Sequence record: PQ536907.1
Source of the DNA: a phage
Reading direction: 5' to 3' (one strand)
DNA length: 64,000 bases
The position numbers were made by a program, and so were the translations under genes. The notes beneath the pieces were generated by a model, which was not told where the DNA came from, did not search any database, and saw only the letters and a program-made list of their open reading frames with translations. Of the stretch, positions 4,034-10,268 are shown one piece after another; within the stretch, counting starts at the first letter, position 1; each line of letters starts with the position of its first letter.

Positions 4034-4037
4034 CAAT

Positions 4038-4066
4038 GGGGACCTTTCGGTCCCCATATTTTTATT
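4038..4066 (+). terminator. Rho-independent terminator after gene 54
   Basis: Stem ggggacc / loop tttc / ggtcccc followed by a T-rich run (atatttttattt), directly after the gene 54 stop. Confidence 0.6.
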
Positions 4067-4352
4067 TACGGAATGAAATGAAAGCAGAAACTGAAGCAAC
4101 TAAACTGTCTTCAATATAAACTTCAATTTTTACCGGAGCTTCTGACTCGAATTTACCTGTTACTACACCTTGGAAAATACTTTCAGTTTGTTCTGGCTTT
4201 GAAAAATTTTCAGAAGGAAAAATTCCGAACTTTTTATCTGTTCCAAAAATTTTGATAAATTCATCATAAACTGCTTCATTAAAAGCATTATCAGCAGGAA
4301 TAACGCCTTCAACTACAAGTTCTTGACCCAAAAAGCGCAAAGAAGATTTCAT
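4062..4352 (-). CDS. Hypothetical protein (96 aa), first ORF of the 54-alt interval
   Basis: ORF with ATG start, preceded by an early-type promoter and leader; position corresponds to the small alt.-n ORFs of T4. Confidence 0.5.
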   Translation of the reverse strand: MKSSLRFLGQELVVEGVIPADNAFNEAVYDEFIKIFGTDKKFGIFPSENFSKPEQTESIFQGVVTGKFESEAPVKIEVYIEDSLVASVSAFISFRK

Positions 4353-4360
4353 TTTGTGTT

Positions 4361-4413
4361 CCTCATGTTATGTCAGTAAGACTACTATAACACAACACGA
4401 GGGACTTGTAAAC
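4361..4413 (-). promoter_or_regulatory. Early-type promoter plus 5' leader cassette (repeat copy 1)
   Basis: On the - strand: GTTTAC, about 17 nt, TATAGT-like -10, then leader ending in a GAGG ribosome-binding site; about 50 nt near-identical to 19682-19734. Confidence 0.5.
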
Positions 4414-6470
4414 TACATCTTGAACTTTTTAGACATTCCGTTGATGTTAACCAAAGAAGCCAAGATTTGAGAAACTTCGTTTTCCTCTTCTTTTGATTCT
4501 TCTACAAGGAATTGATTAAATCCAGCCATTGGACGAACTTTACCAGTTTCCATTAAATGATCGCCATCATATACTGATTCTTCTAATTGTTCAGAAGGAG
4601 GAACGATTGTACCTTCGATTAGATACTTGTTATAAGCAGTTTCTTTCATAAAGTACGTACTTACTTTATTAATCTTCAGTAAAATTCCACGCGGTAGAAT
4701 AACTTCAGCTTCTGATGGAAATCCTGATAAATGACCTGGAACGATAACTTTGATTCGCTCAGCCCCTTTAATTACCATACCTACGCTAGTTTCAGCATCT
4801 TCATTGGCATATGTAGAATGACTACCCATATGCATTAAATCTTCTGCATCAACGGAACCTTCTCCTTCGCCAGAAAATACTGCGCCGGAATCATCTAGAG
4901 CCATATAGTTTTTACCATGCTCACCGAAGATATTTGGTTTAAGTGATGTCGATACGAAGTTCTTGAAATAGAACATTTTGTTTTCAATGTTATGACGCAA
5001 AGTTTTAAAGGTAACTTCTTGTCCACGGTAAAGTGTAGTTCCTGGAGGAAGAACTGATCCTTTGGCAAAGGCAGAATCTAACGTCTCGATGTGATTAATA
5101 GCTCTTTCCATGTATTCTTCACGGGTAGAATCTGGTTTACCCAAAAGGAACGAGTTCATTTCAACATATGAATCTGCACAATAATCTTCAATTACATCAG
5201 ATTCAGCCTGAGTCAGTCCTTTTGGAGTTACTTCGGTGCTTGCGTATTCATATGCCTGAGCAGCAGATTCATTAATCAATTTATAAATGCCATTCATTAC
5301 AAATTGAATAATAGCTGTCTTTTCATCTGATGTAGCTTTAGAATCTTTAACTAAATCATTGATAATTTTCTTAATAACATCAAAGCTATTAGAAATATTA
5401 ATGTCAGCAAGATCGCTTAAAATTTTATCAGTTTTATAATCAAAGAATTCTTTATTCTTTAAATATTCTTGAGAACCTTGATATGTTATATCGCTCTGCA
5501 GCTTGATAGATGGATCGCGTAAACGTGCATGGGTCAATGCAATATGATTTCGGAAACTTTCTAGTTCATAATCATTAGATTTAAAACGAGAAGCACTTCT
5601 CATACCACCGATAGCTCCTTTGCTGAAGTTTGAACCAATCTGGATAACGCCAGAGTTCATTGGTCCTTCTGCTTTATATACCGGAACTTTAGATTCAAAC
5701 TCTTGATATTTCTTGGCAGCGAAGCTATCACCCTGAAGTGAAGCATCAACAGTAGAATATTGAGCTTGTGCTGCTAATCGACGACTAATTTTAGTTTTCT
5801 GAATAACAGCTTGATCAGTGCGCTTATCATTTTCTAAAGCAATAGAAGCAGCAACAGCGACAGCTTTAGGAACAGCATTACCTGTTTTAACGTCTACATA
5901 AACATCACCAACCTTTGATTCAACTTTTGTGAATAACTCAGTTGAAATAGGAGGTACACCTGGAATGTCTTCTAAATTGGCATTTTTACGGTAAACCATA
6001 ATATATGCATATTTTTTATCATAGTCCCAGATTTCCTTTAAAAGAACATATCGACCTGCTCCCTTAGTACGTACTAAACGGTCAGCAATAACTTGCATTT
6101 GACGAGCTGCGCCATTTGTTTTACTTTTTAGTACGCGGAATAGGCATGCGTCGATTTTATACTGTTTCATTGTTTGAAGAGCAGTATCAAAAACAGCATT
6201 AATGACGCCAATTGGATTTCCACCCAAGTTTCTAAGCTTAACCAGCGATAATTTCTCGTTGACACCTATCATTACGATATGCATCATTTTATCGCCCGGC
6301 TTAACGTTTTTATTTGTATCACCACCGGAGGTGTATGTACAAAATCTAAATCCAGGAAGCACGCTTTCTTCGCCGACTTGAATAGCAAAAATTTGTGGTA
6401 TTTTATGCTTAGGATTTAAGTTAACAACCGGCGCCGAAGCGCCGTCAAATAATTCTGTAATAAGTTCCAT
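4413..6470 (-). CDS. Alt-like mono-ADP-ribosyltransferase paralog (685 aa)
   Basis: N-terminus MELITELFD...LNPK.KIPQIF shared with the neighbouring Alt; C-terminal R-S-E motifs (LYRG, STS, EAEVILPRG). Confidence 0.8.
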   Translation of the reverse strand: MELITELFDGASAPVVNLNPKHKIPQIFAIQVGEESVLPGFRFCTYTSGGDTNKNVKPGDKMMHIVMIGVNEKLSLVKLRNLGGNPIGVINAVFDTALQTMKQYKIDACLFRVLKSKTNGAARQMQVIADRLVRTKGAGRYVLLKEIWDYDKKYAYIMVYRKNANLEDIPGVPPISTELFTKVESKVGDVYVDVKTGNAVPKAVAVAASIALENDKRTDQAVIQKTKISRRLAAQAQYSTVDASLQGDSFAAKKYQEFESKVPVYKAEGPMNSGVIQIGSNFSKGAIGGMRSASRFKSNDYELESFRNHIALTHARLRDPSIKLQSDITYQGSQEYLKNKEFFDYKTDKILSDLADINISNSFDVIKKIINDLVKDSKATSDEKTAIIQFVMNGIYKLINESAAQAYEYASTEVTPKGLTQAESDVIEDYCADSYVEMNSFLLGKPDSTREEYMERAINHIETLDSAFAKGSVLPPGTTLYRGQEVTFKTLRHNIENKMFYFKNFVSTSLKPNIFGEHGKNYMALDDSGAVFSGEGEGSVDAEDLMHMGSHSTYANEDAETSVGMVIKGAERIKVIVPGHLSGFPSEAEVILPRGILLKINKVSTYFMKETAYNKYLIEGTIVPPSEQLEESVYDGDHLMETGKVRPMAGFNQFLVEESKEEENEVSQILASLVNINGMSKKFKM

Positions 6471-6473
6471 GAT

Positions 6474-8570
6474 TTATCCTTGAACGAACTTGTAAGGCAT
6501 GTTTGTAATATCTATGCAAGACGCAATAATTCCAAGAGATGATTCTACTTTCTGTTTAACGTTTGATGAAACAAATGATGCAAAGTCAACTCTGTCTTCT
6601 ACTTCAATATCACCTGTCATTGCAACTACTTCACCGGTTTCCATTAAATGGTCTCCGTCATAGATTACCGATTCGGTGAGCTCTTCCGTAGTCATAACTT
6701 CAGCTTGAATGAGTTTTGTATTATTAGATGTTGTTCCGTCATTATTAGAAGCATCAGTTATTTTATTAACTTTGACCATCAATCCACGCGGTAGAATAAC
6801 TTCAGCTTCTGTTGCTATTCCGAGACTTCCTGGATATACAACATTAACTTTATGAGCTCCATCAATTGCCCATCCTATTTGAACTTTAACGTATTCAGGA
6901 TTTTCTTTATACGCTCTTATTTCGTTTGGATTAATAGTTATTCCTTCTTCATTTTTATCAACTGTCAATTCATTACGAGCTTCTGGTTCTAAAAGACCAA
7001 TACCAGCATGTGTAATTCCAAAACGCCCAAAAATGATAGGAGTTAAAGAAGTAGATACAAAATTTCTGAAATAGAACACTTTATTTTTAACTAGCGCTTC
7101 GTATATAGGAGCAGTCATACTTTGAGCACGATAAACTGTAATGCCTTCCGGTATGCGGTCACCATTTTCAAAAGCTGAATCTAAATTATTTATAGCAGAT
7201 TCAATTTCTTTTTCACTCATTACATCATATCGTTCTGGATTGTAACGACCTAAAAGAAGATTATTGATGTCAGTATATCCTGAACCACAATACTCTCTAA
7301 TGCCGCGCTTTTGTGATGGAGTATATTTAGAACCATCACGGGCAATAGTAATATCAATCATTGGACCTGCACCAATTCCAGAAAAACTATAAATCATTCT
7401 TTTGAGGAATTTAGTTTTTGCTGCATTCCAGGCATTTTTAGTTATTTCTTCCCAGACTTCATCTGGCTGCCCTTTACGAGTTTTATTATGTTTATCAAGC
7501 CAATTATCTTTATATTCTTCAAAGAGTTGATTAACAGCTGCTGCGTATTTCTCTAAACATTTTATTGAAGTAGTTGGTTCATTTTTAATCGCATTAAGAA
7601 TTACATCTTTAATTTTTTCAGAAACTTCATTAACCTCACTTTTTGAAAAGAATTTATAGTCATAATGAAGTTCATCTGCAGTTCCTTCAGCAATAATTTT
7701 TGCTGCCTTAGTTTTAGAAGCTAATGAATTAATTCCAATTTTCATTTCTTCTGCTTCGGGAATTAAAGGTGCAGTAGCTGGTTTATTAAAATTAGCTGCT
7801 GTAGATTCATACTTCTGGAATAATTCACTTTCAAATCTAGAAGATTCCAATGACTGGCTTTGTGCAATTGCTCTACGGGAAATTTTAACTTTAACGATTA
7901 CAGCTTGGTCAGAACGTTTATCATTTTCTTGTGCAATAGATGCTGCAATTGCCTCATTTTTGGTTACTTGGGCTCCAGTATCTTTATTGATATAAACATC
8001 ACCGACTTTCGATTCAACTTTAGTAAAGAGCTCGGTACTAATTTCCGGAACTCCTGGAATGTCTTCTAGTGATACATTTTTACGATGTATAAGAATATAT
8101 GCATACTTTTTATCGTAATCCCAGAGTTCCTTAAGAAGGACGTATCTGCCACCTGAACGACTACGGATAAGTCTATCAGCAATAACTTGAATTTGTCGAG
8201 CTTGACCAGCGGTTTTAGACTTAAGAATACGAAGCATACAAGCATCAATTTTATATTGACGCATTGTTTGCATTGCAACAGTAAAAACTGAATTGATATA
8301 ATTAATTGGGCTTGGACCAAGACCTTTTAATTTAGCAATTGAACCTTTAGCAGTTAATGTAAAAGGAACGATATGCATCATTTTATCGCCCATTTTTAAA
8401 TCGCGATTAGTATCACCTCCAGATGTATACGTGCATAAACGAAAGCCTGGTTGTTCAATTGCATCATCAACATGAACTGAAAAAATTTGTGGTATTTTCT
8501 TCTTTGGATTTAAGTTTGTAATCGGAAGAGTAGTATCTTCGTCAAATAATTCTGTAATGAGTTCCATCAT
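6474..8570 (-). CDS. alt: RNA polymerase ADP-ribosyltransferase Alt (698 aa), capsid-packaged type
   Basis: N-terminal MELITELFD resembles a capsid-targeting sequence; C-terminal R-S-E motifs (YRA, STS, EAEVILPRG); adjacent to the ligase as alt is in T4; late promoter upstream. Confidence 0.8.
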   Translation of the reverse strand: MMELITELFDEDTTLPITNLNPKKKIPQIFSVHVDDAIEQPGFRLCTYTSGGDTNRDLKMGDKMMHIVPFTLTAKGSIAKLKGLGPSPINYINSVFTVAMQTMRQYKIDACMLRILKSKTAGQARQIQVIADRLIRSRSGGRYVLLKELWDYDKKYAYILIHRKNVSLEDIPGVPEISTELFTKVESKVGDVYINKDTGAQVTKNEAIAASIAQENDKRSDQAVIVKVKISRRAIAQSQSLESSRFESELFQKYESTAANFNKPATAPLIPEAEEMKIGINSLASKTKAAKIIAEGTADELHYDYKFFSKSEVNEVSEKIKDVILNAIKNEPTTSIKCLEKYAAAVNQLFEEYKDNWLDKHNKTRKGQPDEVWEEITKNAWNAAKTKFLKRMIYSFSGIGAGPMIDITIARDGSKYTPSQKRGIREYCGSGYTDINNLLLGRYNPERYDVMSEKEIESAINNLDSAFENGDRIPEGITVYRAQSMTAPIYEALVKNKVFYFRNFVSTSLTPIIFGRFGITHAGIGLLEPEARNELTVDKNEEGITINPNEIRAYKENPEYVKVQIGWAIDGAHKVNVVYPGSLGIATEAEVILPRGLMVKVNKITDASNNDGTTSNNTKLIQAEVMTTEELTESVIYDGDHLMETGEVVAMTGDIEVEDRVDFASFVSSNVKQKVESSLGIIASCIDITNMPYKFVQG

Positions 8571-8590
8571 ATCCTCTCTAGTGTTTATTC

Positions 8591-8598
8591 TATTTATA
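8591..8598 (-). promoter_or_regulatory. Late promoter (TATAAATA) upstream of alt
   Basis: Exact TATAAATA on the - strand about 20-28 nt upstream of the alt ATG. Confidence 0.55.
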
Positions 8599-8619
8599 AA
8601 ATTAAAGGCCCGAAGGCCT

Positions 8620-8808
8620 TTAATAATCTAGTGGTAAGAGAGTACGATATATTTCAAACTTTGGTCCTTTTTCATAGGCATCAAATGTTTCTGTAAATTT
8701 ATTATAAGCGTATGCATCTACAAATTCGAGAATGACTTGTGATACAGAAGTAGAAACATCTCCACCTTCTTTTTGAGCAATGACAATTGTTTCTAAGTAA
8801 GCTTTCAT
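8620..8808 (-). CDS. Hypothetical protein (62 aa), translationally coupled to DNA ligase
   Basis: ATG overlaps the ligase stop (ATGA); stop lies inside a GC hairpin (aaaggcccgaaggccttt). Confidence 0.45.
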   Translation of the reverse strand: MKAYLETIVIAQKEGGDVSTSVSQVILEFVDAYAYNKFTETFDAYEKGPKFEIYRTLLPLDY

Positions 8809-10268
8809 AGACCAGTTACCTCATGAAAATCACCAAATACATCTTCGAATGTATTAGCTTTAGTTTTATCTTCACGTAAACGAATCGCAATCGGAAGAAA
8901 TAATTTAACGTAATCAGTGCGGCCATCAGATTTTAACCAACCGTTGCATTCGCACTCTAGAATTTTTCCAATATAATAATTTTGGTTTTCCATAATGCGA
9001 GTACGGTCAAGCTCATGTGATTTTACGCCGGCTTTATCTTTTAAGCCTGAACCAGCATTTACTTTAATTTTTCCACACTCTGATTCAAGAATAAATCCAC
9101 CTGCTTTAGTAGGGTCTTTACGGTGAGGATAAATTCCTACAATTTTTAAATCAACATCAATTACTTCTTTAAATTTATAGAGATTTTTTGAACGAGCATT
9201 TTCCCATAATCCATCGATATTTTTGAGAATAATACCTTCAAGACCTTGGTCAATATACTTTTTATAAATTACCTTAGCTTCATCTAGGTTATTTACTACT
9301 TGGTTTTCAATTAAAATTACTTTATCATAGCCTGATGTCATTTGTTCTAGTTTAGAAAAACGTACATCATATTTTAAACGAAATGCTGGAAGACCGTATA
9401 TTTCTACCAACGGAACATAATCCCAGACCTGAAACTTCATGCATTGAGCTTCTTTTTCTGAAATAGTTCCCTTTAAAGATTTATTAGCGATTCCATTAGA
9501 AGTAGTACGTGATTCAGCTACTTCAGCAAACTCTTTAGCTTTACTAATTTCAGGATAAGCATCAAAAAGAAAATCTAGGCCTTCTGGCTCCTTTTTAACT
9601 TGCTCATGGTATACCAATTCGCCATCAATTAACACACCTTCTGGATGAATCTGGCGGGCTTCAGCGGTCATTTTGATTAACTCTTCCTTAAGAAGATCTA
9701 ATCCTAGATATTCATTACCAGCTCGTGATAAAAGACGGACATCATCTAATTCATCACCTCTAACTTCAGCAAAACACCGAGCTCCATCTGCTTTTAATTG
9801 TGCAAAGGCTGGAAATTTGATATTCTTACTAATGCCTTTTTCATCATAAGAACTTGCGAGCATTTGAGGTTGTTCAGGAATTAAACCTGGCCAAACTTTG
9901 TTTGCAATAGATACTGAAGCACCACATTCAAGGTCTCGCATCATCACTCGACGCAAAACTTCAACATCATCTTTTTTACCATCGGTGATATATCCAGATA
10001 ATTCCTCAATTGCCGCATTTCCGGTCAATTTCCGAGTAGCTAACGTGAATTCAATGAAGTCAAGCATATCGGTAAGAGTCAACATTCCAAAACTCTGGGT
10101 AGCAATACCCGGTTTAGGCCATTTCTTGATATAATACTGTAACCCACGAGAATAAGTCAGACGATATACTCGTTTAAGCAATTCATTATCTTTATTCTTT
10201 TCAAGAATTGCTTGCTTCTGCTTAGTTGAACCAATAGATGCTATTTCGTTCAGAATTTTAAGAATCAT
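8805..10268 (-). CDS. 30: ATP-dependent DNA ligase gp30
   Basis: 487 aa; sequence matches my recollection of T4 DNA ligase (MILKILNEIASIGSTKQKQAILEKNKDNELLKRVYRL...); adenylation motif KADG. Confidence 0.95.
   Translation of the reverse strand: MILKILNEIASIGSTKQKQAILEKNKDNELLKRVYRLTYSRGLQYYIKKWPKPGIATQSFGMLTLTDMLDFIEFTLATRKLTGNAAIEELSGYITDGKKDDVEVLRRVMMRDLECGASVSIANKVWPGLIPEQPQMLASSYDEKGISKNIKFPAFAQLKADGARCFAEVRGDELDDVRLLSRAGNEYLGLDLLKEELIKMTAEARQIHPEGVLIDGELVYHEQVKKEPEGLDFLFDAYPEISKAKEFAEVAESRTTSNGIANKSLKGTISEKEAQCMKFQVWDYVPLVEIYGLPAFRLKYDVRFSKLEQMTSGYDKVILIENQVVNNLDEAKVIYKKYIDQGLEGIILKNIDGLWENARSKNLYKFKEVIDVDLKIVGIYPHRKDPTKAGGFILESECGKIKVNAGSGLKDKAGVKSHELDRTRIMENQNYYIGKILECECNGWLKSDGRTDYVKLFLPIAIRLREDKTKANTFEDVFGDFHEVTGL

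Follow-up and report, generated by a model that had tools for sequence, protein, structure and literature searches.

Organization of the alt locus

The window (the whole 64,000-nt stretch of DNA that was analysed) derives from a Tequatrovirus (T4-like phage) and contains two adjacent open reading frames (ORFs) for Alt-type ADP-ribosyltransferases (ARTs). As noted in a preliminary description of this DNA, the ORFs encode 685 aa (4413-6470) and 698 aa (6474-8570) and are separated by 3 nt (TAA-atc-ATG). Because both are located on the minus strand, the promoter-proximal ORF is that of 698 aa, with a YRA motif, and the 685-aa ORF with a YRG motif follows it; the residues had been assigned correctly in the preliminary description, but the YRG copy had been called the first. 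The pair is flanked by DNA ligase/alt.1 on one side and alt.-3/gp54 on the other, and it thereby occupies the genomic position of the Alt family (gene 30/alt.1 to alt.-3/gene 54, with a late promoter). The genes and signals of the locus, in the order of transcription, are:

8604..8621, minus strand: hairpin AAAGGCC-TTCG-GGCCTTT with a T-rich tract behind it, immediately past the alt.1 stop codon (read from the sequence)
8591..8598, minus strand: TATAAATA, T4 late-promoter consensus, upstream of the pair, just after the hairpin and 20-23 nt before the ATGs
8573..8576, minus strand: GAGG ribosome-binding site; the spacing to the ATGs at 8567 and 8570 is 5 and 2 nt, respectively
6474..8567 (ORF to 8570), minus strand: alt, ortholog of T4 Alt, 697 aa, RB32/T6-type allele
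7187..7194, minus strand: internal TATAAATA, within alt and 717 nt ahead of the second gene
6477..6481, minus strand: AAGGA ribosome-binding site of the second gene, in the last alt codons, 6 nt before the ATG at 6470
4413..6470, minus strand: second Alt paralog ('alt.-2' of RB32/T6), 685 aa

The hairpin, which was missed by a simple terminator scan, is likely a terminator or RNA-end structure that parts upstream transcripts from the alt late transcript. The late-promoter motif that follows it is also found 5' of T4 alt (L001 11532-11539). In the AT-rich window TATAAATA is not rarer than expected by chance (9 found, 9.4 expected), so what lends weight to the late promoter is where it lies and that T4 has it too. 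The internal TATAAATA is a possible candidate for another late promoter. It is kept in RB32, T6, and O157kw and absent from the T4-type alt, but this conservation is uninformative because the motif encodes a conserved A-I-N-N. The earlier statement that a promoter lies upstream of the pair and none between the genes is therefore correct for the upstream motif but, for the second part, only with respect to the 3-nt gap. Matches to sigma-70-like promoters in the interval of the pair show no excess over chance (17 versus 18.9 expected).

The 698-aa ORF begins with MM, and the position of GAGG suits the second ATG (8567), which gives a protein of 697 aa. The same start is used in the annotation of alt in RB32 and T6 (2094 nt), so the previously given length of 698 aa describes the ORF but not the probable product. 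The sequence of the AAGGA site at the end of alt is conserved in T4, and its location fits a possible translational coupling of the two genes on one transcript.

Domain architecture and conserved motifs

Each protein is composed of four modules: an N-module of ~240 residues that starts from MELITE, a helical middle region, an ART core with R-S-ExE motifs (C3/Vip2/Vis type), and a C-propeptide. Their boundaries are as follows:

8567-7848, minus strand: alt N-module, residues 1-240
7847-7338, minus strand: alt variable helical middle, residues 241-410
7337-6672, minus strand: alt ART, residues 411-632
6671-6477, minus strand: alt C-propeptide, residues 633-697
6470-5751, minus strand: second paralog N-module, residues 1-240
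5750-5226, minus strand: second paralog own helical middle, residues 241-415
5225-4578, minus strand: second paralog ART, residues 416-631
4577-4416, minus strand: second paralog C-propeptide, residues 632-685

Both proteins start with (M)MELITELFD...LNPK.KIPQIF, and their overall identity is 41%, with 66% in residues 1-240, 12% in residues ~241-410, 32% in the ART, and 34% in the C-terminus/propeptide. The helical middle regions show no sequence relation to each other. The shared start and the divergent centre noted in the preliminary description are both borne out. The same description placed the ART domain at the end of both proteins; its R-S-E motifs are present, but a C-propeptide of 54-65 residues follows an L-x-E site after the ART domain. 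The motifs of alt (697-aa numbering) are YRA at 479-481 with R480, STS at 505-507, and EAE at 587-589 followed by VILPRG. In the second paralog they are YRG at 481-483 with R482 (5027-5025), STS at 507-509, and EAE at 587-589 (4712-4704), with VILPRG next.

The alt product matches Pfam family PF03496 (ADPrib_exo_Tox) with 128.8 bits and the second paralog with 71.1 bits (cut-off 23.4; E values for the two proteins 2e-37 and 1e-19). Both are covered almost entirely by phrog_802 'Alt-like' (residues 1-696 of 697, E 5e-273, for alt; residues 1-685 of 685, E 1e-255, for the second paralog). Structure comparison of the ART fold covered the downstream copy, whose AF2 model (pLDDT 73) matches Vis, C3, Vip2, CDTa, Certhrax, and iota-like ARTs with a probability of 1.00, a target-normalised TM of ~0.6, E values of 4.5e-7 to 1e-4, and 14-21% identity. 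On alignment the ART motifs are undamaged in both copies, and 29 homologues show no variation at R482, S507, S509, E587, E589, E6, and E631 or in the YDGD block; the catalytic and processing residues are at least 90% conserved in 60 more distant homologues. Alt proteins have an unusually long (~80 residues) and divergent stretch from STS to ExE.

T4 Alt is cleaved by the prohead protease gp21 at ITE-6 and LTE-619, which yields a 68.2-kDa protein (PMC5694885). The mature mass computed from these cleavages is also 68.2 kDa, and we mapped the sites onto the window proteins. Judged from this alignment, both keep both gp21 sites of T4 Alt: MELITE|LFD is present in each, and the second site reads EELTE|SVIYDGD in the upstream copy (E632) and EQLEE|SVYDGD in the downstream copy (E631). 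The previously proposed capsid-targeting-like character of the N-terminus is thus supported by homology.

The N-module occurs together with PF03496 in 58 of 60 Alt-family representatives and is almost confined to proteins with the Alt architecture. Its fold may be GNAT-like. A permissive Pfam scan of seven diverse N-modules matched no GNAT family. Its assignment to the GNAT acyl-CoA N-acyltransferases is thus not supported by a sequence profile, nor is it by the Q/R-x-x-G-x-G/A CoA-binding loop; the corresponding loop reads K-T-A-G-Q-A and K-T-N-G-A-A in the window proteins, and the family consensus KKMKGQx has no conserved final G/A. On a speculative reading, the N-module may be distantly related to carrier domains on effectors of other phages, for example a zeta toxin and a deaminase.

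Comparison with T4 Alt and other ADP-ribosyltransferases

The upstream gene is the positional ortholog, between alt.1 and alt.-n, of the gene for T4 Alt (gpAlt, NP_049811), a head-packaged, injected NAD+:arginine ADP-ribosyltransferase. The two genes share the late promoter, the R/STS/ExE motifs, and both gp21 sites, and the proteins are collinear and 70% identical (697 aa versus 682 aa in T4). When they are compared by module, identity is 100% over residues 1-240 and 89% over the C-terminal module (601-697) but falls to 30% in the middle region and 59% in the ART core, with abrupt transitions near residues 241 and 619. By this alignment, the upstream copy carries a distinct allele of the effector core. 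By analogy with T4 Alt, ADP-ribosylation of RNA polymerase alpha Arg265 ('alteration') by the upstream ortholog is plausible.

The downstream gene corresponds to 'alt.-2', or the second 'Alt-like RNA polymerase ADP-ribosyltransferase', of RB32 (YP_803136) and T6 (AXN58232), with the same 2058-nt length, the same position, and no substantive difference (11-15 amino-acid changes). A second Alt-like gene annotated as in RB32 is also carried by RB3, AR1, ime09, 6phi13, and others.

The C3, Vip2, iota, CDTa, Vis, and Certhrax toxins (PF03496) resemble both paralogs in their catalytic fold and in having R, S-T-S, and E-x-E motifs. Alt proteins differ from these toxins in the added 240-residue N-module, the helical middle domain, and the protease-removable propeptides, and also in their route of delivery, the phage head in place of secretion. 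Among T4 proteins, ModA and ModB are R-S-E ARTs as well and modify proteins of host transcription and translation, but they are early cytoplasmic proteins of ~200 aa that have no N-module, propeptides, or late promoter and are not packaged. [quoted passage not shown] In contrast to Alt, they are small and non-enzymatic, have a 10-residue capsid-targeting sequence, and show no homology to it.

Distribution of the second paralog and its loss in T4

The intact pair is present in 402 of ~545 related phage records, T6 included, with 90-99% nucleotide identity of the second gene, and it is the majority state, the commonest in the genus. The same pair is found in RB32, T6, O157kw, BCH953P4, and Dhakavirus dhabil. 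Because the lineage of the second paralog is kept in Dhakavirus (at ~47% identity), it has been maintained since before the split of the two genera. Its 90%-identity cluster comprises 772 member sequences. The dN/dS ratio is 0.04-0.07 overall and at most 0.15 in every module, the paralog-specific middle included, so the second paralog is under strong purifying selection.

About one-quarter of the related genomes are without the gene, and T4 and about 140 related records have a remnant only. As the preliminary description supposed, T4 carries only short alt.-n ORFs beside alt (61-aa alt.-1 and 67-aa alt.-2) and not two intact paralogs. The homology of the remnants (NP_049810, NP_049809) to the downstream gene spans its first ~117 codons, with 94-95% nucleotide identity, and they thus represent a truncated full-length paralog, whereas the T4 record itself describes them as duplicating just the opening part of alt. 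In agreement with this origin, phrog_23015 and phrog_15247, equal in length to T4 alt.-1 and alt.-2, give a far better match to the second paralog than to alt. Two copies of a direct repeat mark the breakpoints of the T4 deletion:

6123..6131, minus strand: upstream copy of the 9-nt direct repeat CTAAAAAGT, 5' breakpoint
4424..4432, minus strand: downstream copy of the 9-nt direct repeat CTAAAAAGT, 3' breakpoint

The T4 remnant is accounted for base by base by a 1-nt deletion, which breaks the reading frame in two, and by a second deletion of 1,699 bp between the CTAAAAAGT repeats, which takes residues ~117-680; through these two events T4 lost the second paralog. In phage sutha it was lost through a separate deletion, and the gene has therefore been lost independently at least two times. 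Shortened variants are also present in the protein database (P0007, 624 aa; P0008, 528 aa; P0010, 415 aa). Given its absence from one-quarter of genomes and these repeated losses, the contribution of the second paralog is conditional.

Proposed function and alternative explanations

We favor, with a probability of roughly 0.75, a reading in which the two tandem paralogous alt genes are co-transcribed, their products are packaged and injected and act on separate targets, and the second gene is a maintained but dispensable accessory gene. From the position of the TATAAATA motif at 8591-8598, a single late message would cover both genes, and the second would be translated from the AAGGA site within the end of alt. 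By homology with T4 Alt, both proteins would enter the prohead core, where trimming by gp21 after E6 and after E632 or E631 would produce mature forms of ~70 and ~69 kDa that would remain in the head and be injected with the DNA. Each enzyme would then move ADP-ribose from NAD+ to arginines of host proteins, and the divergent middle regions, together with the long and divergent STS-to-ExE segments, probably set different target sets. That the substrates of the paralogs differ is suggested by sequence divergence only. In the literature that was searched, there was no virion proteomics, enzymology, or biochemical study of the second paralog.

Packaging and injection are known for T4 Alt only (PMC9026906, PMC5694885), and late synthesis of the second paralog without packaging is conceivable, albeit unlikely; the protein would then act late in infection within the producing cell or as a non-injected partner or regulator of Alt. 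The wholly different middle region would be in line with this, as would the C-propeptides, which are only 34% identical, so core-targeting efficiency could differ between the paralogs. However, MELITELFD is identical to that of Alt and E6 is invariant, conservation extends to the L-x-E site and to the SV(I)YDGDHLMETG block behind it, and the N-module is 66% identical to that of Alt and almost confined to Alt architectures; two protease sites and a propeptide would be of little use in a protein that does not meet the prohead protease. We see little room for the proposal that the second gene is a superfluous copy decaying into a pseudogene, as happened in T4, and contributes nothing distinct. 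The remnants in T4 and about 140 related records, the separate deletion in phage sutha, the shortened variants, and the non-essential nature of T4 Alt itself (PMC9026906) would agree with it, but it is made highly improbable by the low dN/dS in each module, the invariant catalytic and cleavage residues, the 402 records with a gene that is intact and 90-99% identical, and the retention of the lineage in Dhakavirus.

An injected second paralog might also use an acceptor other than protein arginine, such as a nucleic acid, a small molecule, or, as for ModB, NAD-capped RNA in a transfer reaction. RNAylation of proteins is reported for T4 ModB, also an R-S-E ART (Wolfram-Schauerte et al.), crystals of Vis toxin, which is the best structural match, were obtained with the small molecule agmatine, and the STS-to-ExE segment is unusually long and divergent. 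We consider this quite improbable, since the E-x-E motif, which in the C3/Vip2 families is the mark of arginine-specific ARTs, is invariant, the protein is built throughout like Alt, itself a protein-arginine ART, and the sequence has no signs of RNA or DNA binding.

A broader and tentative extension of the favored reading, which we hold to be possible but rather doubtful, is that the alt locus is a modular delivery system in which the conserved N-module and C-propeptide, responsible for prohead targeting and ejection, surround an exchangeable specificity-plus-catalytic cassette. The injected second paralog would then have a target other than RNA polymerase, possibly a host defence component. 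The two Alt alleles with sharp recombination boundaries at ~241 and ~619, the wholly different middle domain of the second paralog, and the existence of some second-paralog variants with N-modules graded towards that of Alt are compatible with such a system.

Implications for T4-like phages

The distinctiveness that the preliminary description implied for the pair is not upheld. The pair is already known, as RefSeq annotates both genes as Alt-like and a 2026 paper describes the same pair with the same interpretation, proposing functional divergence (PMC13600099). As a finding from a genome scan it is correct but ordinary and adds nothing new. T4 is the reference for injected phage enzymes, yet it carries a deleted version of the second gene, so this paralog has been overlooked through decades of T4 work. 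To our knowledge, it has never been studied biochemically. Two different ADP-ribosyltransferases are probably injected by about three-quarters of the close relatives of T4, the classical phage T6 included. Should the second one act on targets of its own, the account of host takeover by T-even phages in the first seconds of infection that is drawn from T4 would be incomplete. The presence or absence of the second gene might also matter for the host range of therapeutic T4-like phages or for their counter-defence.

Organization and expression signals of the tandem alt locus

The surrounding genes identify the phage as T4-like. On the (-) strand, the transcription order is gp30, alt.1, the two Alt open reading frames (ORFs) and alt.-3, and the baseplate genes 54 and 48 come next, on the (+) strand.

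Features of the alt locus, in transcription order
8805–10268, (-): DNA ligase gp30, first in transcription order
8620–8808, (-): alt.1, 62 aa, Pfam 'Phage_blade' PF24647 (E 1.9e-29)
8604–8621, (-): GC-rich hairpin 3' of the alt.1 stop codon, unflagged by a simple terminator scan
8591–8598, (-): TATAAATA, the T4 late-promoter consensus
8573–8576, (-): GAGG ribosome-binding site, suited to the second ATG at 8567
6474–8570, (-): upstream ORF (alt), 698 aa, starting with MM (ORF reading)
7187–7194, (-): second exact TATAAATA, inside the upstream alt and 717 nt before the second gene
6 nt upstream of the second ATG, (-): AAGGA site of the second gene, within the 3' end of alt
4413–6470, (-): downstream ORF (second paralog), 685 aa (ORF reading)
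4062–4352, (-): alt.-3, 96 aa, Pfam DUF5498, directly 3' of the second paralog

In agreement with the preliminary description, the ORFs of 685 and 698 aa are adjacent, with a gap of only 3 nt (TAA-atc-ATG). A start of the upstream gene at the ATG at 8567 gives a protein of 697 aa, which matches the annotation of phages RB32 and T6. The late promoter proposed upstream of the pair was found at 8591–8598, and the same motif precedes alt in T4. As TATAAATA occurs in the window about as often as expected by chance (9 observed, 9.4 expected), the evidential weight of this site comes from its position and conservation. The proposal that nothing resembling a promoter lies between the two genes stood in part: sigma-70-like matches in this region were no more frequent than expected by chance, but an exact TATAAATA lies inside alt at 7187–7194. 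The internal site is kept in RB32, T6 and O157kw and is missing from the T4-type alt; its conservation does not show promoter function, because it sits in a conserved coding motif (AINNLDSAF).

Downstream of the pair, alt.-3 has a sigma-70-like promoter of its own at 4384–4412 on the (-) strand (TTTACA-17 nt-TATAGT with an upstream TG), which starts immediately 3' of the stop codon of the second paralog. T4 mutations that confer escape from the CmdTAC defence system are C-terminal extensions of Alt.-3 (PMC11618068). The convergent genes alt.-3 and 54 are separated by a 9-bp GC-rich hairpin at 4036–4057, which scored as terminator-like on both strands and could therefore act in bidirectional termination.

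Architecture of the two Alt proteins

Both proteins matched Pfam ADPrib_exo_Tox (E 2e-37 for the upstream and 1e-19 for the downstream protein) and, over their full length, phrog_802 'Alt-like RNA polymerase ADP-ribosyltransferase' (E 5e-273 and 1e-255, respectively); NCBIfam contained no family for either. The upstream protein is the positional ortholog of T4 Alt (70% identity), and the downstream protein is the product of the gene named 'alt.-2' in RB32 and T6. Aligned to each other, the two proteins are 41% identical overall. The shared N-terminus noted in the preliminary description is reflected in 66% identity over residues 1–240 (the N-module), and the differing central region in only 12% identity over residues ∼241–410; the identity is 32% in the ADP-ribosyltransferase (ART) core and 34% in the C-terminal part. 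Alignment also resolved the concern that the ART motifs of one copy might be disrupted, as the catalytic arginine, S-T-S and E-x-E motifs are intact in both proteins. They are invariant in 29 homologues and at least 90% conserved in 60 more distant members.

In its AlphaFold model (mean pLDDT 73), the downstream protein comprises, from N- to C-terminus, an alpha/beta N-domain (residues 12–232), a disordered linker, a helical region (∼250–470), the ART core and a disordered C-terminal tail. The modeled ART part matched the structures of Vis, C3, Vip2, CDTa, iota-like toxin and Certhrax with a probability of 1.00. A phmmer search of PDB sequences (E up to 1) retrieved neither a structure of Alt nor one of a close relative. 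The N-module was also considered as a generic delivery domain carried by many effectors, which was rejected at the sequence level. It had only 69 matches in 1.84 billion cluster representatives, nearly all of them proteins of 600–712 aa, and the ART domain was present in 58 of 60 N-module proteins. A fold search with the N-module gave weak hints of relatives within other large phage proteins.

Loss of the second paralog in T4 and sutha

As stated in the preliminary description, T4 carries only short ORFs next to alt, namely alt.-1 (61 aa) and alt.-2 (67 aa), which the T4 record and Nolan et al. 2006 (PMC1524935) explain by an old duplication covering the first part of alt. Our alignment shows that this remnant equals the second gene of the window with two lesions: the loss of 1 nt at window position 6311 and a 1,699-bp deletion, the ends of which fall within the 9-nt direct repeat CTAAAAAGT at 6123–6131 and 4424–4432. 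The lengths agree exactly, since 2058 − 1699 − 1 gives the 358 nt that the T4 remnant measures. The two lesions together with this arithmetic account for the T4 remnants, which are therefore a truncated full-length paralog. In line with this, phrog_23015 and phrog_15247, two families equal in length to alt.-1 and alt.-2, match the downstream protein far more strongly.

In Escherichia phage sutha (PV245934; positions 4474–6677 of its record, L007), a different deletion of ∼1.9 kb removed the second paralog. There, an intact alt of the RB32/T6 type is succeeded by just the last ∼125 nt of the second gene, which carry the annotation of an 'Alt-like' ORF of 38 aa. The deletion has other breakpoints than that of T4, and the loss in sutha is independent of that in T4.

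Distribution, selection and mosaicism

The arrangement is common, and the finding was known before. Nolan et al. 2006 (PMC1524935) noted that other T4-like phages have full-length duplications of alt, and in numerous genomes RefSeq labels both genes 'Alt-like RNA polymerase ADP-ribosyltransferase'. The literature that we found on the second paralog consists of genome-annotation statements (PMC1524935, PMC13600099), with no experimental study among it. The segment missing in T4 was covered to at least 80% in 402 phage records, out of ∼545 that matched the interval at all. The whole window arrangement was matched by 368 records and the T4-type arrangement by 174, some of which (e.g. BCH953P4) pair an Alt of the T4 type with a second paralog that is intact. 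The paralog-specific middle region was found at ∼47% identity in 44 further records, including Dhakavirus dhabil, where the same tandem pair is found at this position; the duplication is therefore older than the split of Tequatrovirus and Dhakavirus. The intact pair is both the ancestral and the majority state.

When the window was compared with RB32, T6, Ec_O157kw and BCH953P4, the second paralog had a dN/dS of 0.04–0.07 overall, at most 0.15 in each module and 0.01–0.10 in the paralog-specific middle region. On these values, pseudogene status was rejected. Its 90%-identity cluster contains 772 member sequences, and the second paralog is, as judged from these sequence comparisons, a functional gene.

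The upstream alt has a composite relationship to T4 alt (L001, the T4 record). Nucleotide identity is 92–100% for residues 1–240, 38–73% for residues 241–618 and 89–98% from residue 619 onwards, and protein identity by module is 100%, 30%, 59% and 89%. The divergent part (window 6672–7847, (-) strand) is sharply bounded at residues ∼241 and ∼619. Upstream Alt is a mosaic, with the middle region and ART core of an allele other than that of T4, a pattern that indicates cassette-like recombination, in which the effector core is exchanged between terminal modules that stay conserved. The N-modules of P0003–P0006, database homologues of the second paralog, are 74, 83, 91 and 96% identical to that of Alt, compared with 66% for the window paralog. 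These values suggest that gene conversion has taken place between the tandem copies, although these homologues come mostly from metagenome assemblies, in which chimeric assembly is possible.

Predicted packaging and processing

T4 Alt is cut by the prohead protease gp21 after ITE-6 and LTE-619, which yields a mature protein of 68.2 kDa, as determined by mass spectrometry (PMC5694885; also PMC9026906). Our computed mass for T4 Alt residues 7–619 is likewise 68.2 kDa, which validates the site mapping. Both window proteins retain MELITE|LFD and have an L-x-E site (EELTE-632 in the upstream and EQLEE-631 in the downstream copy) right before the conserved SV(I)YDGDHLMETG block. In the homologue alignment, neither E6 nor E631 varies. 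The predicted mature masses are 70.1 kDa for the upstream and 69.3 kDa for the downstream copy. By homology, the second paralog would enter the prohead and be processed like Alt, and the conserved gp21 sites are the strongest computational argument for this. Overall, the interpretation in the preliminary description is supported by computation and, as an inference for its functional steps, the two proteins would be packaged and injected and would have distinct substrates.
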